Of a DNA stretch of 64,000 nucleotides, positions 44,936-54,913 are shown piece after piece; within the stretch, counting starts at the first letter, position 1, and each line of letters opens with the position of its first letter. The stretch lies in the IMG/VR virus record IMGVR_UViG_3300045256_000188, positions 1 to 64,000 of that record. The stretch is one strand, 5' to 3'. The stretch comes from a virus. The position numbers and the translations under genes were made by a program. The notes under the pieces are model-generated. The model saw only the letters and a list, made by a program, of their open reading frames with translations. It made no database searches and had not been told where the DNA came from.

Positions 44936-47900
44936 CTACGTGGGCATGGCGCACTTGTCGTTGTCGCAGAACTGCGAACCCACCGCCTCGTACAGATACT
45001 CCGAGTAATCGGCGTTACCGAGCTTGGAGTTGTACTCCTCAACTTCCGCGGCCTCACACGGAATGTATGGGGCCTGGGCGTAGCCATGGTCTACGTGCGG
45101 CAGGAAACTGATGCCCTTGAGTTGGTCCTCAAAAGCTTCCAGCACGCGGGCAATGTCCGCGGCCTCGTGCGGCTTAAACTTCACGGTACACGACACTTGG
45201 TTATCGGCCCAATACCGCTGGTAATCCACGGCGTTCTGCATCTGTTCCCAGATGCTAACTTCGCCGACTGGCCGGACGCCCGATTCGCCCTTGACGCCGA
45301 AGTAGACCACCACGGTCCGGTCCGGGTCAGACAGCACCGGCTCGACCTTGAAACCCGCCTCGCGGAGGATCTTGACCAGGACCGAGTCCTTGGCGACCCG
45401 CACCAACCGCCAGTAGGTGCCGGCTTCGGGATGGTGGATGCCGGGGGAGACGCCCACGACCAGACTGACGGTGTTATGGCTTTTCACCGCCCCCGCATAG
45501 TACCAGTGACTATTATCGACCTCGACATCATATGTGCGTTGCCGTTCGCCTTGGGTTACAGCCACCACTTTGCCAAATAATCTGTTCTTCTTGCCAACTT
45601 GGTGTGTCCATGGTAAATCGGCAACGGCGTCTTCCACACACTTATTGCAGTGTTTAGCGAACAACGCGAAGCGGTCGTCCACGGTGTGTTTCATCCCAGA
45701 CAAGGACCACATTCTTCGCACGCCTTGATGATTGCGTCCCTTAGCGTTAAGCGACCTACTGAAAACAAGACCAACGGCCAACGCCACATCCTGAACGTGC
45801 CGAGCAAATAAATCCCCAGACATTGAAATGATTGGATACTGATCAGACGCCCGCCGACCAATGCAGCCATCGGAATCACACAGCCCAGCCAGGAAGGCCA
45901 AGATGTCTTCGTAGCTTGAACTGCGTATGCATTTCGGGATCAAATCAGCATTGCTCTTGATTTTCAGACAGTCGTTAATCAAGAGCCAGTGCCACAGCAA
46001 CTTGGAACCAACTTCGAGAACGAAAGCATCACGACCTTGGGAAGCCCGTGTGATTTTCGTCTCGACTCCGAATTGCTCCAGAATAACCCTTTGGGCTTTG
46101 TGTAAATTAGACAGATTTTGATCGGTGTACCGCATCCTGAATTTCAGGAACGATTGTGAACCGTCGCCCCACATGTATCCGAGCAACCACGCTAGATCCG
46201 GGTTCATGTGCGTTGGTTGCTCAATGGCTGCGACCGGACCACGCATCGACACGTGCCTAGATGATAGTTTGCAGAGGGCAGCATGGTTGCGACACGAATA
46301 AATACCAGGAGTCAGTTGCACGATGTCGCCAGGCAACAGTTCGTCGGCACGTTTCCAGTCGTTGACCTGGCTTAATTTCCGCTTCTTACCTCGGTCGTAT
46401 CGTGACACTACGAACCATTGATGGTTTGGAGTCGACTCAAGCATGAAATTGTAGTTGAGTTTGACCTTCACGACATCAGATAAGCCGTTGTCATAGGTCT
46501 TGGTGATGCGATCACCGATTGCCGTGGCAACTCCAGCCATCATCGACCGACTAGAATCGATTCCATCTCCCTGAACAGCGATCACTTCTTTGGTCATATC
46601 ACACCACCGTTCCCCATCCTGATGGCCAGACATCTCGAACAGCTCTTCGAGGGTCAGCAGACCGGCGGATGTTGTCGTCAGTGCATGCCAGGGCCGACAG
46701 CCGCTAGGCTTGACCGACGTGACCTTGATCGACTTCGGAACGCACATCCATTCCGAGTAGATCTGGTCCCAACGGCGGATCTCATTGTAGCCGGCATCGC
46801 AGAAGTCCTTGAGGACCGTGCGACGACCAAACTTGGCGAACGCTTCCACGATCCCCGACTGGCTCAGGCCGATCCGCCGGTTGCGGAGGGTGACCTGATT
46901 CGTCCGGCGATTGTGGGTTGGCAGCAGGGTGACGGTCTTGGCGTACAGGTAGGCGAACTTGAGGGTCCGCATGTAGTCGTTGGCATCATCGTGGTTCGAT
47001 GGGAACGTCTCCACGAGATTACATTGGTAAGTGATGACGTTCCCGAATACACCCATGTGGTTGTCCGGCTCATCAAAGCAATAAGTAGTATGCAGACCAG
47101 GAAGTTTCTCGACGGCAACCACATACTGCTTTTGGGCGACATCGATTCCGCGATTCGAGTATCGTGGATTCGGCTTAATCCGGCTACCGATCTTAGTTGC
47201 TCGCTTCACCCTGGTTGGGATTTCTCCGCACTCGAAGCTCGGAATCTGAATGTACCAGAGGTCGTTCTGTCGCACCCCCTTGTTCGTCACTTGCCCAGCC
47301 GGGTGATAAAAATTGACGGAGGCGTGGTTGATCCCAGCCCTGCGTAGGAGTAGTTGGGCATCACGAATCTTGGCTTCCAAACCGTAGATCCGATAGCTGT
47401 GAGTATTAGCCTGCTTACACACGCAACCGTCCGACTCGATCCAACCGGCGATGAACTCCAAGATGCTCTCACGATCGAAAGCCATCACCCACGCCGGTAA
47501 GCCGGCGTTCTTGTCGCGAAGTTCTCTGAGCTGATCGGAAGTCATACAGTCTCGAAGATTGATGCGATTATACGGGTCGCCGTAACCATCCTTATTCTGT
47601 GGTTTGTACCAACGACCTCCCATGTCCAGCGTCTTGAGTTTGGCCTTTTGGCCACAGGCGACGGCCATGGGGCGGGTATAGCGTGGCCGATTCACGAGAT
47701 CACCATCGCCAGTAGCATAGCCCATTTCAAAAGCGTTAGAGACTTTGTTACCAGCGACCCGGCCCAGAGAGAAACCCAGCACGCGGTCTCCAGGCTGTAA
47801 TTGTAGGGTTCCAACACGTCGATAGACCCGTTTTCCAACAGGCCGCACCGACCATCCGTGATTGCCGGTAGCATCCAGATAAGAACCGTCGGAGAAGTGA

Positions 47901-50900
47901 ACTCGATATAGTTCGCGGTCGCTCCCAGTGACGCGGGGCGTGACTTTCGACCAACTATCGCCGTTCCAGACTTCGACAATCTTACCAACCACGGCGTCGA
48001 TCCGGCGGATGCCATCCCGGAGCTGTAATTTAGTGTCACCACTGACACACAGCTCGTACGACTCCAGGGACTGCTCCATGCATTGACCAATTATTATCCC
48101 ATTGACAACAACTTTATTATGCCCCGGTTCGGTAAGACAGAAAGTCTCCTCCTCACCGACACGCTCAACAGACATGACCATCGCAAACAGTTTCGGTAAA
48201 GAGTTGCGGCTACCATGGTGGTCGGCCAACCAAGATGTAGCCTTTTCGGTTTTCGAAGCCTGTATAAAACCGATCTGATTCATGAACAGCTGAACGTTAG
48301 TACGACCGGAGATTATTAGTTCGTGGCCACCATTTCCATCGTTCATAAGTCTGGTGGTAACCGCTTGTCTTCGCAGGACGCTAGAATTGATCCCAAACTG
48401 CCTAAGCAACAGTTGACATTCATTCAAGAATGACTTCGATTTCTGGCCGGCCCTGATAGAGATTGATAGTTTGTAGTTGCTAATCTGTACACCACCGTCC
48501 GCACTAAAGAAGCCCCTAAGGAAAGCTGCCACTGTTTCGCGAGTGCCACCCCAAATAGATGTAGGGACCCTGTGCTTGTCGCCTGGAACAACACCGTCAC
48601 TATTAAGCAATCGACCCAGGACATTGGACCTGATCGATTTCTGCCGATGGCTGAAATGCTCCTGACGGCGTTCACTGCCATCGAAATCGGGAGACTGATC
48701 ACTGGATTGATTGTGCCGATGATAGACATCCAATAGATTACGGCGCAACACCGGTAAGACCTCTTCGATATCGTCCTGATGACAGGCCACAAACGCCGTC
48801 ACCTGACCATCACGCTGTTGTGACAGTGAGCCATCTCCGATCACCCAGCCAGCCAATTCAGCATAGTGCGGATCGCTGAATTGCCCGAATGCTGGCACGA
48901 AATGAAGTGGCAAACGGTGACCCGGAACCAATTCACATAGCCGTACCCTGTGCTCAACCATATCATCATCCAAGACTACGAAGACATGATCAGCGGTGGC
49001 GTCGATATACTGACCATTACTAAGCATCACGCGGAATATTTCAGCACGTTCGCTAGTTCGATAAACATTGGTAGCAGTAACCACACCAGCATGGTTTACT
49101 ACTCTGAGTGTGCCATGCTTGTCAACGGATGGTTGACCGCTATACTCCTGAAACCCACCACTTACCCACAGTTCGCGCATCGTGCGATATCCGTTCTCGG
49201 TCAACAACCTCATGGCTCCCGCAAAACAAGGGTTCGCCCCCATCACGCGGCCATCCACACCGGGCTTGAGGCCGTCCACCATCCGCCCGTAGTCGCGGAC
49301 GTTGTTGAGCCAGATGATACCCGGCTCGCCGTTGACGCCGATCTGCTGACCGACAGGACGGTAATCCATGCCGAGCTTGGCGAAGATCGAGTTGTTGGAT
49401 GCCCAGCGGTGGTGGTTAAGGGCGTTCCAGGTCTGGATTGCCGGCAGCAACCGCTCATCCGGGATGTCCTTACCGGCGAAGTCGTCCTTGGTGGCCGAGT
49501 TCCGCTTGGCGGCGTAAATCTTGCCCGTAACTTCGAACCACGCATCCATGTCCTGCGGCAGCAGGGTCTTGGTCGGGTTCTTCATCGAGCAGTACGCTTC
49601 GTCGTCGGCGTCACCGAAGGCGATTTCGGCGGTGTTATGCACCAAACGCCCCTCCGCCACGAACTCGCTGCGGTCCGGCACGGACAGATCGTAGGTCTCG
49701 ACGGTCACTCCCTCGTCCACGACTGAGGTCACCGCCACCGGAATCAGACCCTTTGTCTTCAGGCCCAGCGTAGTAGCACTTGAATAGGTCATCTGTTCCT
49801 GTTGCGGCGTCCAGGTTCGGCCGTAGTCAGCATACATCACACTCTTGCTGACCATCTCCGTCGGGTAGCCGAAATCGTGGCCGCTGGCCCGTCCCATCTC
49901 GCGAAGCTGCTTGACCGCATGGGGCTGGACATGCTGGCGGAAACCGGCGATGGCATACTCGCCCAGCAACGAGATCTCCCATTTGGCCTGGCCAGCAGCG
50001 TCGGCCTTCTTACGGAGCCGCAATTTGGTCGGGATACCAAGGCTTGAGTATACGGCCTGCACCTGCCGTAGGAAGTCACGATATACGCTAGTCACCAGGG
50101 TGGTTGGACGGTTCTTGGTGGAACCGTCGCTGTCCAGCAGCCCGGCGAGGTAGGCAGATCTGATCTCCGGGATCCCCATGCGGATACAGGCCGGTACGTC
50201 AAGGGGCTTACGGGCCTGCTTAACGTGAGTGTACAAATAGTGGGCCAGTCGCTTGGAAATGACACGGATCTTGCGACAATTATCTTGGCTGCGTTGCTCG
50301 CCGGGGGCGTCGAAACCGAAGGCCGCAAATCCGGCGTTCACTTTGGCGGTGATACCATCATGGTATTCGTCTCGATTTACGGGGATCGTCACCGAGGCTC
50401 CATGGTACTTGCGGCCCTTGTGGGCACGCCCAGGATACACGTAGCCGCCGCCATGTACGGCCCCCAGGAACCACGCCACGTCCGTGGTCAGACCGGGGAC
50501 GATCAGGGTTGACCCGCGGCCGGATAGGTCACTGTAGCCGGGCAGGACGGTATCGGTACCGGGGATGACGGCATCCACGAACACCATTCGGTCACCGGCC
50601 CGGAGTTCGTGGGCACGCTTCCACTCGTATTGGTCCAGGCCGCTCATCACGGCGATCCGGTGCCTGTCGGTGCAGCGGAACGGCCCCATCAGACTGTTGA
50701 TGGTCACCACCCGCTGAACCCCCTGGGCCACGTTTTCGGCGACCGGGTAATAGCCGTCGGCGGTGAGGACTAAATCACCGACCTGTACCTGTTCGATCGG
50801 GACCAACCCGCGTTTGAGGTGAACCAGGGTGCCCTTGGGCAAGCACCGACGGACATTCCCAGCAACCACGCAACGACCAATGTAGTTCATCAAGTCGGTG

Positions 50901-53857
50901 ATGTCCACCGAATCGAGGGTCTGGCCGATCTTCCGGTCCAGGTGGGCTCGAATGAGGACGTGCAGTTCGATCAGGATACTAGGGCCGCTGGCCTTGCCGC
51001 CAAAGCCCTTGATGTCCGACCCTTCCTTTCGAATCTGGGAATAGTCGAACTCGACGATGCCTTCCTTGTAGGCCACGGTGTAGGAGCGGATCAGGTGGCG
51101 TACCGAGTCAACCCAGCCCTCGCGGGAGTCTGGGATGACAAACGGCCGAATGATGCTTGGATTGGGCTGGTAGATGTTGATCTTGCCAGCACCCTTGGTA
51201 TCAAACCCGACGCCCACGCCGAGCATCGACATGTCCATGAGGAAGCAGAACGGCTCAGCCGGGTCTGACTCCGACAGATCGGAGGTCGAGACGAAGCCGC
51301 AGTTCCGGGAATGGATACCGTCAGCGAGAGCAAATGAGTGGTAATCTGGAACCTGTGGGCAGAAGACTTCTTCGTACCGGTCGGTTGGCTCCACTGACTT
51401 GACGCGCCAGTGATATACAGGCCGCGTCCGGTGACTGGACCAGGACTCGAATCGACGGCGATGTTCTTTCAGCAAGAAGAACTCAGGCCGTAAATGAGAC
51501 CCCATAAGCCCAATCTCATAACTGTCGAAGGTCTTAACTTCCCCATCATGCTTGACAACTTGATGGCTCTTGATGATAGAATATGTGCCAATACCAAGAA
51601 CGGCACACACGTCACGCACGACTAGAAGATTGGACTTCTTACTGCTGCTAATCCTGATACAGTTGCCTTTCTTGTTGATCTTCCCGTCAGCAGCGAAGTA
51701 ACCGGCGAGCCAGCCATAGAGATAACTGCTCGACTCACGCAGAGACGGTGGTTCTTTGAAGAATCGCGGAAGATCCGCGACTCGCACCGCCCCACCCTCA
51801 CACTTGTCGGGATGATCGGTAGTCGGGCAAGAGTTGAAGTACTTGAGCAGTTCCCTATCCTTGTGGCCACACAGATAAATAGATGCTCCGCTGTGACCAG
51901 CTGCCGGGGTATTGCCGTCACCATACGTGATCCCGTGGGCGATGCCAAAGTTACTTGGCCGAAGTTCACCACCGATGCCACGTCCAAACAGGTATCGCAG
52001 GCAATCAACGCCGGGTTTGAGGTCCTTAGTAGTGCAGATGCGATAAGGAGCCGTTCTCCGCCTCTTGGCTGTGATGACAGCCACACTCACACCATCGGAC
52101 TGACTGGCATGGTTTGCCGGTGCGAACCGGCGATCACGTGCGTACCACTCATGATCAGCGGTAGCGTAGATGATCTTCTCTGAACCAGAACGCTCAAGAG
52201 TGATTTTCCATAGTTGTTGCACCCCAAACGATTTGATAGGTGCTTCAACCCAGCGTCCACCCTCGGTCAGTAGCGTCTGGACGGTGCCAGCCAATTCACC
52301 TATGGGCTTGATGCCGTCGCGAGTAACAATCTCCTCTTCGGCCGGGAGACAGTTCCCGGTCAAGATGTTGTCTTCGAGGACGAAACATCCCTTGCCAGGA
52401 ACTGTGGCACAATATACTTCCTCTTCCCGATCAGTTTCTTCGACCGATTCCACGATCCATTTTTCGCGATGGCTACCGCCGCGTTCCTTCCAGGCCAGGA
52501 ATCGCTGGCGGTGATGAGACAGCAGGAAGAAGTCTTCGGTCAGGTGCTCCAATTTCAGGTACACCCGGTATCCAACGAATTCGCGGCGGTCACCGCGGTG
52601 GTTCACCACATGCATGCCCTGTTGTACTAGACCGGTGCCGATACCGAGAACAGCACAGACCTCACGTACCAGTTCCATGTTCTCCTGTTTCGAGGAATGG
52701 ATAAACGCCGTACATGCCTTCTTATTGATAGAGCCGTCAGCAGCGAAATATCCGGCCAGCCAACCGTACAAGTACGCCTTACACTCACGCAGATCCGGCG
52801 GCGACTTATAGTGGCGTGGCAGATCAGCCACCCGGATCGCGCCCTCCTTGCCCTTGCGTGGGTCGAAACTCGTCGGCGATTTCGAGAAGAACTCTAGTAA
52901 TTCAAAGTTCTTCTTGCCGCAGAGATAGAGATAGCTGCCGGTGCTCTTATCCTTGTGACCGAGCGTCCCATCGCCAAAGCAGATGCCATGGGCGATGCCG
53001 AACTGCGACGGTCGAACGCTCTGAACGCCTTGCCCATAGACCATCTGAAGCTCGTGCCCGATCTCCAGATTGCGTGTAAGCGTTTCCTGGAACGGCCCCT
53101 TACGCCGGATGTGACGAAGCCGTTCGTCCCGGTCCACTCCGGCCGGGATTCGATTCAGTGCTGGTCTAGCGAACCAGCGGTGATCAGGGGTGGCGTAGAT
53201 GACCTTGCGAGTCCTGAACCGCTTCAGGACTATTTTCATCAGTTTCTGTCTGCCGAAACTGCGGATTGGTGCATCTACCCACTCACCGTTGCTAGTCATC
53301 AACATCTGAGTGGTACCGGCCAGCTCCCCAATGGGCTTGATCCCATCTCTGGTGATGATCCGTGTGTTGAATTCCAGACAGTTGTTCAAGGCGGCGGAGC
53401 CCCGTTCCCACATGAACTTGGTGCCCATCATCCAGAGCCCGCGGCCCGGCGGCAGGAACTTGAAGTCCCACATCCGCTGAAACATCTCCTGGGCACTGGC
53501 CTGGGCTTTTTCAGCGGTCCAGGGGATGTGCAGGTGATTGCAGTGTCGCCGCTGGATCTCGTAGCAGCCTTCAACGACCCGCTGGACGACGTCGAGGAAC
53601 GTCTCCTTGCTGCCGTCCTCCTTGAGGCGGGAGTAGGTGCGGTAGAAGACGAATTCACCGAGTCCGCTGAAGCCGAATTTGGGCTTCTTCCCCTTGTACC
53701 CCTTGAGGAATGCCGGATCGAGGGTGAAATGAGCTTCTCCCTGTCCGCCGCCGAGATACTTCTCGGCGATGTTATAGATCTCGGCTTGCGGAGACAGGGG
53801 GATAGCGGGGCCATTCCCCACGGCCGCTGGCCGCAGGTTCAAGAGGATAACAGACAC
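44936..53857 (-). CDS. nrdJ: Class II (adenosylcobalamin) ribonucleotide reductase, RTPR-type, with six inteins
   Basis: RTYSR, PPGRGLW, LNN|CGF, GVGVGFD, VAGNVRR|TA, RWASNNS, NGEPG, GANP|CMEQSLESYEL|CNLVE, NRRIGLS, VKPSG|TVS, C-terminal FCDNDKC; start set at GTG behind GGAGAG. Confidence 0.93.
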   Translation of the reverse strand: MSVILLNLRPAAVGNGPAIPLSPQAEIYNIAEKYLGGGQGEAHFTLDPAFLKGYKGKKPKFGFSGLGEFVFYRTYSRLKEDGSKETFLDVVQRVVEGCYEIQRRHCNHLHIPWTAEKAQASAQEMFQRMWDFKFLPPGRGLWMMGTKFMWERGSAALNNCLEFNTRIITRDGIKPIGELAGTTQMLMTSNGEWVDAPIRSFGRQKLMKIVLKRFRTRKVIYATPDHRWFARPALNRIPAGVDRDERLRHIRRKGPFQETLTRNLEIGHELQMVYGQGVQSVRPSQFGIAHGICFGDGTLGHKDKSTGSYLYLCGKKNFELLEFFSKSPTSFDPRKGKEGAIRVADLPRHYKSPPDLRECKAYLYGWLAGYFAADGSINKKACTAFIHSSKQENMELVREVCAVLGIGTGLVQQGMHVVNHRGDRREFVGYRVYLKLEHLTEDFFLLSHHRQRFLAWKERGGSHREKWIVESVEETDREEEVYCATVPGKGCFVLEDNILTGNCLPAEEEIVTRDGIKPIGELAGTVQTLLTEGGRWVEAPIKSFGVQQLWKITLERSGSEKIIYATADHEWYARDRRFAPANHASQSDGVSVAVITAKRRRTAPYRICTTKDLKPGVDCLRYLFGRGIGGELRPSNFGIAHGITYGDGNTPAAGHSGASIYLCGHKDRELLKYFNSCPTTDHPDKCEGGAVRVADLPRFFKEPPSLRESSSYLYGWLAGYFAADGKINKKGNCIRISSSKKSNLLVVRDVCAVLGIGTYSIIKSHQVVKHDGEVKTFDSYEIGLMGSHLRPEFFLLKEHRRRFESWSSHRTRPVYHWRVKSVEPTDRYEEVFCPQVPDYHSFALADGIHSRNCGFVSTSDLSESDPAEPFCFLMDMSMLGVGVGFDTKGAGKINIYQPNPSIIRPFVIPDSREGWVDSVRHLIRSYTVAYKEGIVEFDYSQIRKEGSDIKGFGGKASGPSILIELHVLIRAHLDRKIGQTLDSVDITDLMNYIGRCVVAGNVRRCLPKGTLVHLKRGLVPIEQVQVGDLVLTADGYYPVAENVAQGVQRVVTINSLMGPFRCTDRHRIAVMSGLDQYEWKRAHELRAGDRMVFVDAVIPGTDTVLPGYSDLSGRGSTLIVPGLTTDVAWFLGAVHGGGYVYPGRAHKGRKYHGASVTIPVNRDEYHDGITAKVNAGFAAFGFDAPGEQRSQDNCRKIRVISKRLAHYLYTHVKQARKPLDVPACIRMGIPEIRSAYLAGLLDSDGSTKNRPTTLVTSVYRDFLRQVQAVYSSLGIPTKLRLRKKADAAGQAKWEISLLGEYAIAGFRQHVQPHAVKQLREMGRASGHDFGYPTEMVSKSVMYADYGRTWTPQQEQMTYSSATTLGLKTKGLIPVAVTSVVDEGVTVETYDLSVPDRSEFVAEGRLVHNTAEIAFGDADDEAYCSMKNPTKTLLPQDMDAWFEVTGKIYAAKRNSATKDDFAGKDIPDERLLPAIQTWNALNHHRWASNNSIFAKLGMDYRPVGQQIGVNGEPGIIWLNNVRDYGRMVDGLKPGVDGRVMGANPCFAGAMRLLTENGYRTMRELWVSGGFQEYSGQPSVDKHGTLRVVNHAGVVTATNVYRTSERAEIFRVMLSNGQYIDATADHVFVVLDDDMVEHRVRLCELVPGHRLPLHFVPAFGQFSDPHYAELAGWVIGDGSLSQQRDGQVTAFVACHQDDIEEVLPVLRRNLLDVYHRHNQSSDQSPDFDGSERRQEHFSHRQKSIRSNVLGRLLNSDGVVPGDKHRVPTSIWGGTRETVAAFLRGFFSADGGVQISNYKLSISIRAGQKSKSFLNECQLLLRQFGINSSVLRRQAVTTRLMNDGNGGHELIISGRTNVQLFMNQIGFIQASKTEKATSWLADHHGSRNSLPKLFAMVMSVERVGEEETFCLTEPGHNKVVVNGIIIGQCMEQSLESYELCVSGDTKLQLRDGIRRIDAVVGKIVEVWNGDSWSKVTPRVTGSDRELYRVHFSDGSYLDATGNHGWSVRPVGKRVYRRVGTLQLQPGDRVLGFSLGRVAGNKVSNAFEMGYATGDGDLVNRPRYTRPMAVACGQKAKLKTLDMGGRWYKPQNKDGYGDPYNRINLRDCMTSDQLRELRDKNAGLPAWVMAFDRESILEFIAGWIESDGCVCKQANTHSYRIYGLEAKIRDAQLLLRRAGINHASVNFYHPAGQVTNKGVRQNDLWYIQIPSFECGEIPTRVKRATKIGSRIKPNPRYSNRGIDVAQKQYVVAVEKLPGLHTTYCFDEPDNHMGVFGNVITYQCNLVETFPSNHDDANDYMRTLKFAYLYAKTVTLLPTHNRRTNQVTLRNRRIGLSQSGIVEAFAKFGRRTVLKDFCDAGYNEIRRWDQIYSEWMCVPKSIKVTSVKPSGCRPWHALTTTSAGLLTLEELFEMSGHQDGERWCDMTKEVIAVQGDGIDSSRSMMAGVATAIGDRITKTYDNGLSDVVKVKLNYNFMLESTPNHQWFVVSRYDRGKKRKLSQVNDWKRADELLPGDIVQLTPGIYSCRNHAALCKLSSRHVSMRGPVAAIEQPTHMNPDLAWLLGYMWGDGSQSFLKFRMRYTDQNLSNLHKAQRVILEQFGVETKITRASQGRDAFVLEVGSKLLWHWLLINDCLKIKSNADLIPKCIRSSSYEDILAFLAGLCDSDGCIGRRASDQYPIISMSGDLFARHVQDVALAVGLVFSRSLNAKGRNHQGVRRMWSLSGMKHTVDDRFALFAKHCNKCVEDAVADLPWTHQVGKKNRLFGKVVAVTQGERQRTYDVEVDNSHWYYAGAVKSHNTVSLVVGVSPGIHHPEAGTYWRLVRVAKDSVLVKILREAGFKVEPVLSDPDRTVVVYFGVKGESGVRPVGEVSIWEQMQNAVDYQRYWADNQVSCTVKFKPHEAADIARVLEAFEDQLKGISFLPHVDHGYAQAPYIPCEAAEVEEYNSKLGNADYSEYLYEAVGSQFCDNDKCAMPT
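45473..46699 (-). mobile_element. RNR intein 6 (LAGLIDADG)
   Basis: G|CRPWHA..TPNH..TYDVEV..KSHN|T. Confidence 0.9.
47024..48049 (-). mobile_element. RNR intein 5 (LAGLIDADG, C-terminal Gln)
   Basis: L|CVSGDT..TGNH..TYCFDEP..VITYQ|C. Confidence 0.88.
48083..49228 (-). mobile_element. RNR intein 4 (LAGLIDADG, C-terminal Gln)
   Basis: P|CFAGAM..TADH..TFCLTEP..IIIGQ|C. Confidence 0.88.
49634..50845 (-). mobile_element. RNR intein 3 (LAGLIDADG)
   Basis: R|CLPKGT..TDRH..LAGLLDSDG..TYDLSV..LVHN|T. Confidence 0.9.
51302..52351 (-). mobile_element. RNR intein 2 (LAGLIDADG; paralogue of intein 1)
   Basis: CLPAEE..TADHEW..VFCPQV..GIHSRN|CGF. Confidence 0.9.
52352..53380 (-). mobile_element. RNR intein 1 (LAGLIDADG; tandem with intein 2)
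   Basis: N|CLEFNT..TPDHRW..VYCATV..NILTGN|C. Confidence 0.9.
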
Positions 53858-54510
53858 GGTTCTCTCCAGTCTTGCTCGAAGATGTCGCGGGCTTGGTTGA
53901 GGTTTCCCTGATCCTTCAGGAATTCCTGCCACAGGATGTACAATTCGGTCTGCCTGGGTAACAATCCCCGTTCGTCTGGGTAGTCGCGGTTGAGTCGAGC
54001 CAGAACTTTGGAGCAGGACCGCGACAGTGCGAGATAGAGCGGTGTGATACGGGACGCCTGGAACCACATAGTCAGGTTACAAAACCCGTCAGGGTCTGCC
54101 CGACTTGATAGCACTTCCACGGCGTTGCCATCGCCAATTTTCTTGCTGAGCCAGGACTTGATGTGCCGGAGGGAATCGGTCGTTCGCGTGTTGTTGTTGG
54201 ACTCTTCTTGCAGTTCCTCGTAGCACAGATCCAGCATGTTGTGCTGGTGCAGTACTGCGAGTCCCTTGTTCAGCAGTCCCTTCTCTTTCGCGAGCCGCAC
54301 GGCGATGTCGATGAACTTCTTCGCCGCTTCATCCGGTAGTTCCCACTCCTCAAACTTTTTAGCGATGGCCGTCGCATACCGCCACTGGTAAGTCTTGGAC
54401 GGGTCCGTACCGGCCGGGAGGCTCAGCCTACGGCCTTGCCGTAGATAGGCTTCTGAGCACCAGGACCAGACGTCGAGCACCCGGTTGTCGTCCACTTGCG
54501 ACCTCTTCAT
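53839..54510 (-). CDS. Hypothetical protein
   Basis: Protein-like composition from MKRSQVDD; overlaps the RNR start. Confidence 0.65.
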   Translation of the reverse strand: MKRSQVDDNRVLDVWSWCSEAYLRQGRRLSLPAGTDPSKTYQWRYATAIAKKFEEWELPDEAAKKFIDIAVRLAKEKGLLNKGLAVLHQHNMLDLCYEELQEESNNNTRTTDSLRHIKSWLSKKIGDGNAVEVLSSRADPDGFCNLTMWFQASRITPLYLALSRSCSKVLARLNRDYPDERGLLPRQTELYILWQEFLKDQGNLNQARDIFEQDWREPCLLSS

Positions 54511-54535
54511 GCGGATGTCAATACAAGGAGCTTCG

Positions 54536-54913
54536 ATGACTGACAAGCCCGCACTCCCAGACAAGCAGAAGGCCAAGAATGCACCAGATGTGGCCACCAC
54601 TATCGATGCCCCAGCAGTGGCCCAAAACGGGGTTGGCGAGGGTGCTTCCGACCCTCGCCAGGACAGTTTTGACGCTCGATTCGCGAAGCTAACCAATGGA
54701 TTTGGTCAAGCCTGCGAACAGGAGGGTGTCGAAATCGCGATAGCTATCGCCATCCACCCGGAAGAGAAGCACCCCATCATATTCATGCGGGGCCACCAAT
54801 ACGACGTCGGGGTGCTCTTAGCAGACGTGCTTCGGCAGTTCTCACGACGGCTGATCGGGCCTCTCAACGCCAACCCGAACTACGAGCCAGAAGAAGACGA
54901 GAACGACGAATGA
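54536..54913 (+). CDS. Hypothetical protein
   Basis: AAGGAG RBS before MTDKPAL; acidic tail. Confidence 0.6.
   Translation: MTDKPALPDKQKAKNAPDVATTIDAPAVAQNGVGEGASDPRQDSFDARFAKLTNGFGQACEQEGVEIAIAIAIHPEEKHPIIFMRGHQYDVGVLLADVLRQFSRRLIGPLNANPNYEPEEDENDE

Follow-up and report, generated by a model that had tools for sequence, protein, structure and literature searches.

Two inteins of separate lineage abut at one active-site cysteine of a phage class II ribonucleotide reductase

Two inteins at one active-site cysteine

A class II ribonucleotide reductase (RNR) gene of a large uncultured phage carries two inteins directly next to each other at a single active-site position, the cysteine equivalent to C119 of L. 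leichmannii RTPR. The gene encodes a jumbo-phage class II RNR and lies on the minus strand of the window, the 64,000-nucleotide stretch of DNA analysed here, which comprises positions 1 to 64,000 of IMG/VR record IMGVR_UViG_3300045256_000188, a metagenomic contig of 83,425 b that is about 23% complete. It is probable that the pair consists of two complete inteins of the same family and of separate lineages, that the second was acquired at an already occupied site, and that each splices itself. What the analysis shows is the anatomy of the pair, the completeness of both units, their separate ancestry and the recurrence of the arrangement in other genes. The features concerned are:

44936..53857, minus strand: gene for a class II (B12-dependent, RTPR-like) RNR precursor with six inteins (open reading frame, Pfam and alignment to PDB 1L1L)
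52352..53380, minus strand: intein I1, 343 amino acids (junction motifs, full-length alignment, AlphaFold2 (AF2) model)
51302..52351, minus strand: intein I2, 350 amino acids (junction motifs, full-length alignment, AF2 model)
51299..51301, minus strand: extein cysteine that is the +1 residue for I2 and corresponds to C119 of L. leichmannii RTPR (alignment and junction DNA)

Three junctions, each occurring once in the open reading frame (ORF), delimit the two units (a slash marks the splice junction). At AALNN/CLEFNT the N-extein gives way to I1, with the codon of I1 Cys1 at 53380-53378. At NILTGN/CLPAEE I2 begins with a Cys1 codon at 52351-52349, placing the I1/I2 boundary at 52352/52351, and at IHSRN/CGFV the terminal Asn of I2 (codon 51304-51302) is followed by the extein cysteine, the DNA reading CGG AAC/TGC GGC TTC. 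There are zero extein residues between I1 and I2, so that Cys1 of I2 is the only possible +1 nucleophile of I1. All three junctions had been quoted in the original prediction, made from the sequence alone, which described two diverged inteins abutting without an extein at the catalytic-cysteine position of an RNR, and this anatomy was found again in full. The strings that it listed as shared, TRDGIKPIGELAGT, FGIAHGI..GDG and YLYGWLAGYFAADG, are present in both units. The preceding extein (E1) together with the first Cys aligns to residues 10-119 of the L. leichmannii RTPR structure 1L1L and ends in ..SLNNC119, a residue which we take to be one of the redox-active pair.

The residues expected of an intein with a homing endonuclease can be placed in each unit. 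I1 has Cys1, T64/H67/W69 in block B (53191-53174), Asp137 and Asp215 in the LAGLIDADG motifs, Cys324 at F:4 (52411-52409) and a C-terminus of Thr341 at G:5, Gly342 and Asn343 (52354-52352). I2 has Cys1, which is also the +1 residue of I1, T64/H67/W69, Asp145 and Asp222 in the LAGLIDADG motifs, Cys331 at F:4 (51361-51359), and Ser348 at G:5, Arg349 and Asn350 at its C-terminus.

Two other ways of drawing the boundaries were considered and rejected. In a shifted register, where the middle Cys would form a one-residue extein and I2 would begin with Leu, the product would read ..LNN-C-CGFV.., where homologues have one Cys, and the family alignment places the I2 Cys on the Cys1 column. A nested arrangement is ruled out by residues 1-343 of I1 aligning end to end with the single intein of one homologous RNR (P0020), and residues 1-350 of I2 with that of another (P0003).

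Completeness of both units

I1 and I2 are 49% identical over their full length (175/355 identities by BLASTP, E 3e-111), and each carries the sequence motifs of an intein: C1, T64-P-D-H67 (TPDHRW), VYC324ATV and ILTGN343/C in I1, and C1, T64-A-D-H67 (TADHEW), VFC331PQV and IHSRN350/C in I2. The Pfam Intein_splicing profile stays below its cut-off of 35.8 bits on the single units (17.7 and 19 bits) and reaches 103 bits on the whole ORF. Both units contain two LAGLIDADG motifs and exceed the cut-off of 22.5 bits for LAGLIDADG_3 (24.9 and 28.2 bits); the Asp residues of these motifs (..GDG and ..FAADG), conserved in 253/255 and 251/255 family members, are kept in both.

Models built by AF2 from a 45-row alignment of the window and viral-locus sequences have the HINT fold in I1 (predicted local distance difference test score, pLDDT, 94.3; predicted template modelling score, pTM, 0.91) and in I2 (pLDDT 91.5, pTM 0.89), with an identical order of secondary-structure elements. 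The I2 model alone was searched with Foldseek, and its top PDB matches were PI-SceI, TliVMA and PI-PfuI (E 1e-13 to 3e-10). A sequence search of the PDB with I1 gave no significant match.

Decay was assessed on 52 alignment columns that are at least 90% conserved among 255 family inteins extracted from the retrieved proteins. I1 departs from one of these columns and I2 from two (T6E and T348S), with a family median of 1 and a 90th percentile of 3.6. By motif and column count, I1 and I2 thus read as complete bifunctional inteins, each with a HINT domain and a LAGLIDADG endonuclease, and neither appears decayed. From this conservation and the open frame, both would be expected to be competent in splicing.

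Separate ancestry and probable acquisition at an occupied site

The two units have their closest relatives in different places. I1 is 91.5% identical to the sole intein at the same site of P0020, where it stands directly before CGFVSTSDLS, and the best relative of I2 is the sole intein of P0003 (62% identity). As P0020 and P0003 share 79-97% extein identity with the window gene and have one intein each at the site, sequence comparison indicates that the two intein lineages circulate as alternative occupants of one site within a tight group of RNR genes.

A phylogeny that includes the single-copy alleles places I1 and I2 apart among the same-site inteins. The tree (quick IQ-TREE run, LG+G4) has 91 rows, made up of 85 RNR-site inteins and six primase inteins as outgroup; the 85 were taken from the 255 as those with flanks L.N on the N-terminal and C[GAMSWY] on the C-terminal side, plus I1, I2 and both units of a second tandem, P0139, with 164 others excluded. 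I1 groups with P0020, P0123, P0019 and P0026 (support 98-99), while the sister group of I2 is a clade of ten rows, P0003..P0013 (support 95). The approximately unbiased (AU) test rejects a clade of I1 and I2 (p 0.00015, log-likelihood cost 161). Invasion of the junction of an occupied allele by a related intein, one of the two origins suggested initially, fits these different same-site clades and the single-copy counterpart of I1. Based on this comparison, the settling of a second allelic intein in an occupied site is favoured over a local duplication.

The route of origin is inferred, as are, further below, independence from excision order, class-3-type chemistry and splicing competence. An allele holding the I1 lineage would have gained an I2-lineage intein exactly at the boundary of I1 and the C-extein. 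Alternatively, an I1-lineage intein could have been gained at the boundary of the N-extein and I2. Third-position GC content (GC3) is 0.66 in I1, 0.56 in I2 and 0.82 in the exteins, which weakly fits I2 as the later arrival.

Two routes to such a gain are plausible. The junction of I1 and the C-extein in a one-intein allele reads ..GGG AAC/TGC GGC TTC and the empty site ..AAC AAC/TGC GGC TTC; off-target cleavage could have occurred at this hybrid junction, which still carries ..AAC/TGC GGC TTC. In addition, the N-extein/I1 and I1/I2 junctions both read AAC/TGT CT, and a microhomology join (AAC/TG) between two occupied alleles could have taken place during co-infection. In either case, only the precise in-frame product would persist under selection for a functional reductase.

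Abutting inteins in other genes

The homing endonuclease of an intein is usually expected to leave an occupied site alone, as its target is split by the resident. The window tandem and two further arrangements are counter-examples to such immunity. P0139, a class II RNR on record in JGI, Logan and ENA, has at the same site ..LNN/, a 318-amino-acid intein ending ..ILTGN/, a 159-amino-acid mini-intein ending ..VLTGN/, and CGFVSTER. Its units are 23-45% identical in pieces, and the first has relatives of 48% identity elsewhere. In L071, an RNR large subunit, ..NLNVSTSNI/ is followed by a 135-amino-acid mini-intein and then directly by a second intein that is ended by the contig edge; both units carry the HxW, VYC and TGN motifs.

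P0139 was the only tandem in 251 retrieved proteins, and there were none in 40 further non-self proteins or in 62 viral loci. When the 693-residue pair was compared with proteins of 1673-5326 residues, only the window protein among the 58 matches covered both halves. A degenerate DNA junction pattern, composed of the end of block G and the start of block A, was also used. In its broad form it gave eight matches in metagenome contigs, one of them real (L071), none in viral contigs, and ten in prokaryote genome contigs, none of them real; a stricter form gave one match in viral contigs, which is not an intein, and a search for I1-related loci in viral contigs gave nine pattern matches, none confirmed. 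Because the window and P0139 junctions differ in block A spacing or residues, these pattern scans under-count tandems.

One candidate, L010 (..YGNVLTSN/C..), was rejected as a tandem because its upstream part proved to be extein sequence from a structural protein. The locus (L010:5590-7032, plus strand) holds a family intein in a small phage structural-module protein with a C-extein of 21 residues, and the end of its N-extein, ..YGNVLTSN, mimics a family block G. Pairs of family inteins that are close together and not abutting were seen in P0028, P0014, P0009 and P0016. The gap amounts to eight extein residues in P0028 (..ILTGN/CRFRRDSH/CLAGETE..), and to about 21 residues within a CPFCGSG.. 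zinc-finger-like motif in P0009 and P0016.

Family signature and proposed splicing route

The family to which I1 and I2 belong is large; the search with I2 retrieved 705 longer proteins at E <= 1e-3 and that with I1 1629 cluster representatives. Its hosts are class II RNRs at the ..LNN/C(G or A)F site, actinobacterial DnaG primases, DNA polymerases and others. Among the extracted family members, the splicing positions are occupied as follows:

residue 1: Cys in 254/255
B:7: Thr in 255/255
B:10: His in 255/255
B:12: Trp in 255/255
F:4: Cys in 255/255
G:5: Thr in 242/255
G:6: Gly in 215/255
last residue: Asn in 253/255
+1 residue: Cys in 244/253

Class 1 inteins use Cys1 or Ser1 as nucleophile together with Thr B:7 and His B:10, usually with Asp at F:4 and a penultimate His. 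I1 and I2 have the class 1 features Cys1, Thr B:7 and His B:10, but Cys at F:4 and, at G:6, Gly (I1) or Arg (I2). They carry the triplet of Trp B:12, Cys F:4 and Thr G:5 (WCT) as W69/C324/T341 in I1 and W69/C331/S348 in I2, the last being Ser rather than Thr. In the passages concerned, PMC2807308 and PMC5222942 define class 3 inteins by this triplet, and the block F Cys is described as attacking first (also in a part of PMC7664689); the N-terminal nucleophile is called "not required" in the respective section of PMC5222942. Class 3 inteins have no Cys, Ser or Thr at residue 1, whereas both I1 and I2 start with Cys1. Three WCT inteins with Ser1 or Cys1 are mentioned in an excerpt of PMC2807308, and members of the present family may already be among them.

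Three relatives have Pro1, namely P0169_1 and the inteins of P0291 and P0293, the latter two at the same RNR site (..CLNN/PLHEDTPVLT ... VLCAVV ... VLTSN/CAF). The Pro1 members keep HxW, Cys F:4 and Thr G:5. They look like losses of the N-terminal nucleophile inside a Cys1 family, and thus a possible candidate route to class 3.

Each unit of the tandem would excise itself. If I1 reacted first, the N-extein would pass to Cys1 of I2 and I1 would leave by cyclisation of Asn343, yielding an ordinary precursor of N-extein, I2 and C-extein. If I2 reacted first, the N-extein with I1 would pass to the extein Cys and I2 would leave, yielding a one-intein precursor of the P0020 type. Both orders would end in ..ALNN-CGFV.., and as either yields a normal one-intein precursor, no fixed order of excision would be required. 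The earlier proposal held that the two inteins splice of necessity in sequence and with one Cys in common. The sharing stands, as I1 has no other possible +1 residue than Cys1 of I2, but an obligatory sequence does not.

The delicate point is the Asn343-Cys1 bond, which would belong to both splicing reactions. A class 1 acyl shift at Cys1 of I2 would turn it into a thioester while I1 needs it intact. With Trp B:12 and Cys F:4 present and the penultimate His absent, the block F Cys probably starts the reaction; if, as in class 3 inteins, this Cys were the first to attack the N-terminal splice bond of each unit, the conflict would be removed and Cys1 of I2 would be free to act purely as the acceptor for I1. 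We lean slightly towards such a class-3-type route in I1 and I2, and place more confidence in the other parts of the model. Given the WCT-type motif and the Pro1 relatives, I2 may not need its own Cys1 as a nucleophile.

Alternative explanations

Several observations weigh against two separately acquired, self-splicing inteins with this chemistry. The near-universal Cys1 (254/255) and +1 Cys (244/253) imply that Cys1 matters and fit the class 1 route. When the family profile was compared with PDB sequences, the class 3 inteins of solved structure, 6bs8, 6rix and 6riy (codes from a passage of PMC7664689), were not recovered at E <= 1; the best intein matches, at E 5e-4 and weaker, were DnaE inteins of class 1. 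The block G of I2, GIHSRN, is rare in the family, with Ser at G:5 in 5/255, Arg at G:6 in 4/255 and His at G:4 in 7/255, and I2 has Glu where 236/255 have Thr6; since these residues are atypical, I2 could be impaired in splicing. The L071 units are each other's best match in the set (41% over 97 amino acids), and that tandem may stem from duplication. No recombination footprint of any particular route was found in the exteins compared with P0020 and P0003: mosaic exteins marking a crossover at the site were rejected, as the nearest relative does not switch across it (E1 80.5% identical to P0020 and 79.2% to P0003; E2, the extein that follows, 90.1% and 88.8%), so that the origin route is not recorded in the flanks. 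With the present relatives, a gain in the window lineage and a precise loss of I2 in the P0020 lineage are indistinguishable.

Of the alternatives to two complete, separately acquired inteins, the one that survives best is that one unit, most likely I2, no longer splices, and that the RNR is dead or truncated by cleavage and dispensable to the phage. Phage RNRs are auxiliary genes, six inteins are a heavy maturation load, and the atypical block G of I2 would fit a loss of function. We nevertheless regard this as unlikely: the frame is open over 2973 codons, and I2 keeps 50/52 conserved columns, among them every catalytic one and the two endonuclease Asp. Accelerated evolution of I2 was also looked for and rejected, as its branch length, 0.34, falls inside the root-to-tip span of the sister clade (~0.20-0.39).

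It is a little less probable still that the pair acts as one composite intein of 693 residues, the inner junction of which is never cut. I1 retains the full family C-terminus (..VYCATV..NILTGN) and I2 its Cys1, T64, H67 and W69, and AF2 predicts a separate closed HINT domain for each unit. The 52-column comparison was also examined for complementary decay, by which the two would have become one composite intein, and none was seen. The uncommon residues that I2 has in block A (T6E) and in block G could be taken in favour of a composite, but the block G changes fall on exactly the junction on which a composite would depend most.

An old tandem duplication in situ, in which a single resident intein was copied and the copies have since diverged, was the second origin suggested initially and now seems very unlikely. 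I1 and I2 do belong to one family, with similar lengths, a collinear order and the same frame, and the mutual best match of the abutting L071 units is in line with duplication. However, each unit has closer kin elsewhere (91.5% and 62% against 49%), the two fall into different clades of the tree, the AU test rejects a joint clade, and the 83 other same-site tree rows, the P0139 pair apart, come from single-intein sites, so that an ancestral tandem would need many precise losses.

Last, a chimera, in which the assembler would have joined a strain with I1 at the site to another with I2 there, is the least likely: although the source record is a contig from a metagenome, and closely related RNR genes carry both of the intein lineages, only AAC/TG is common to the 3' end of I1 and the N-extein/I2 boundary, an identical protein (called start apart) is encoded on four contigs from two assembly collections (two of JGI/IMG, the longest 127,894 b, and two of Logan, the longest 56,731 b), and independent tandems exist in P0139 and L071. 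The initial view that the pair is no assembly duplication likewise held at 49% identity; the longest exact DNA word common to I1 and I2 is 14 nt, too short for assembler looping, which argues against any recent or assembly duplication. A blastn search of the 2079 tandem bases against the phage collection gave no match.

The host gene and its six inteins

The minus-strand frame is open over 44936..54067 (3043 codons), with the stop codon at 44936-44938. The likely start is GTG 53857, where the homologue P0020 begins (ORF residue 71), and it leaves 2973 codons or 8.9 kb; TTG 53842 is an alternative, and in the protein collection the otherwise identical protein appears with both starts, residue 71 and residue 76. 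The stop of the upstream gene (53839..54696, minus strand) falls within the first codons of the RNR gene, and the TTG candidate overlaps this stop as TTGA, a layout typical of translational coupling.

Pfam finds RNR_Alpha (110.9 bits) and RNR-II_ins_dom (44.5 bits) in the ORF, plus several intein and LAGLIDADG domains. The exteins belong to the monomeric, RTPR-type class II enzymes by their RNR alpha and class II insertion domains and the C119 position. 1L1L is the sole PDB match of both E1 (E 6e-7) and E2 (E 2e-18), the latter aligning to residues 203-319. Splitting the ORF at junction motifs yields six inserts and six exteins, which in addition to I1 and I2 are:

53381..53857, minus strand: extein E1 (N-extein), 159 amino acids, ends ..GSAALNN
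50846..51301, minus strand: extein E2, 152 amino acids, CGFVSTSD...AGNVRR
49634..50845, minus strand: intein I3, 404 amino acids, RR/CLPKG...LVHN/T (Pfam Hint_2 and Hom_end in the span)
between I3 and I4: extein E3, 135 amino acids
48083..49228, minus strand: intein I4, 382 amino acids, ANP/CFAG...IIGQ/C, Gln-terminated, with the Cys of the NPC.E motif at +1
between I4 and I5: extein E4, 11 amino acids (CMEQSLESYEL)
47024..48049, minus strand: intein I5, 342 amino acids, YEL/CVSG...ITYQ/CNL, Gln-terminated
between I5 and I6: extein E5, 108 amino acids
45473..46699, minus strand: intein I6, 409 amino acids, PSG/CRPW...KSHN/T
after I6: extein E6, 178 amino acids

Inteins make up 2230 of the 2973 precursor residues (75%), the exteins 743. 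I5 is 76% identical to an intein of P0020, and both I4 and I5 lack the penultimate His. All three active-site cysteine positions (NNC, NPC.E and CNL) are +1 residues of inteins in this RNR, the latter two presumably being C408 and C419. The GC3 of the inteins ranges from 0.75 (I3) over the value of I1 to 0.59 (I5), 0.57 (I6), that of I2 and 0.50 (I4), a spread that points to inteins of differing age or donor. According to a passage of PMC10710043, the most inteins known per protein are four, then five (Anaeramoeba Prp8); the six of the window RNR exceed this stated maximum.

Implications and comparison with known systems

There is precedent for inteins as such, for RNRs with several inteins, for inteins next to each other at separate sites and for class 3 chemistry. 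No description of zero-extein tandem inteins at one site turned up in full-text literature searches. That a second insertion can lie precisely at the same codon boundary means that alleles can pile up rather than replace each other, with three RNR cases at hand, and the modelling of intein gain and loss would need to change. Since members of the family start with Cys and need a Cys after their terminal Asn, and since the block F Cys rather than residue 1 probably begins the reaction, a second member could settle at the boundary of a resident without breaking either reaction. Perhaps, though we offer this tentatively and would not bet on it, the combination of WCT, Cys1 and +1 Cys makes the family intrinsically "stackable", in that occupancy does not immunise, and represents the long-postulated Cys1-bearing forerunner of class 3, with the Pro1 variants caught in the middle of the loss. 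If this were true, competing alleles of one site could be fixed together and travel as a unit with two endonucleases.

The bond between Asn343 of I1 and Cys1 of I2 is scissile both at the C-terminal end of one intein and at the N-terminal end of the next, and one Cys is a possible nucleophile for both. The tandem is therefore a natural test bed for the coordination of splicing steps and for the choice between a class 1 and a class 3 route in Cys1 WCT inteins. If the units do splice in series, a linker-free natural pair could serve as a template for sequential or logic-gated protein ligation.

Among systems with several inteins, the RNR of Trichodesmium erythraeum reportedly carries four (Liu, Yang and Meng, 2003). 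It resembles the window gene as an RNR large subunit in which LAGLIDADG inteins have entered several conserved positions of the active site, but each of its inteins has its own site with extein in between, whereas in the window two share a site with zero extein and the gene holds six. In Haloferax, the inteins MCM-a and MCM-d, as presented in parts of PMC10643990, are likewise two homing-endonuclease inteins near each other whose mutual effect on homing is in question. They occupy different sites, with extein between them and with different endonucleases, while the window inteins are allelic and abutting.

With the class 3 inteins covered in the relevant sections of PMC2807308, PMC5222942 and PMC7664689 (MP-Be DnaB, Msm/Mch DnaB1 and Bvi IcmO), the family has in common Trp B:12, Cys F:4 and a near-invariant Thr G:5. 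The penultimate His is often absent in both, a non-nucleophilic residue 1 (Pro) occurs in rare family members, and the +1 Cys is found as in Bvi IcmO. Unlike these class 3 inteins, the family has Cys1 in all but one member, an invariant Thr B:7, and Cys rather than Ser or Thr at +1. The class 1 inteins PI-SceI, TliVMA and PI-PfuI share with I2 the two-domain fold (template modelling score 0.5-0.65), Cys1, TxxH, the terminal Asn and the +1 Cys. Their identity to I2 is 11-15%, and they are single occupants of their sites, whereas the window units have Cys rather than Asp at F:4 and no penultimate His.

Twintrons, in which an intron lies inside or abuts another intron and removal is stepwise, resemble the tandem as a second self-splicing mobile element in or at an occupied site. 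They act at the RNA level, whereas the window elements would be removed at the protein level and stand side by side rather than nested.

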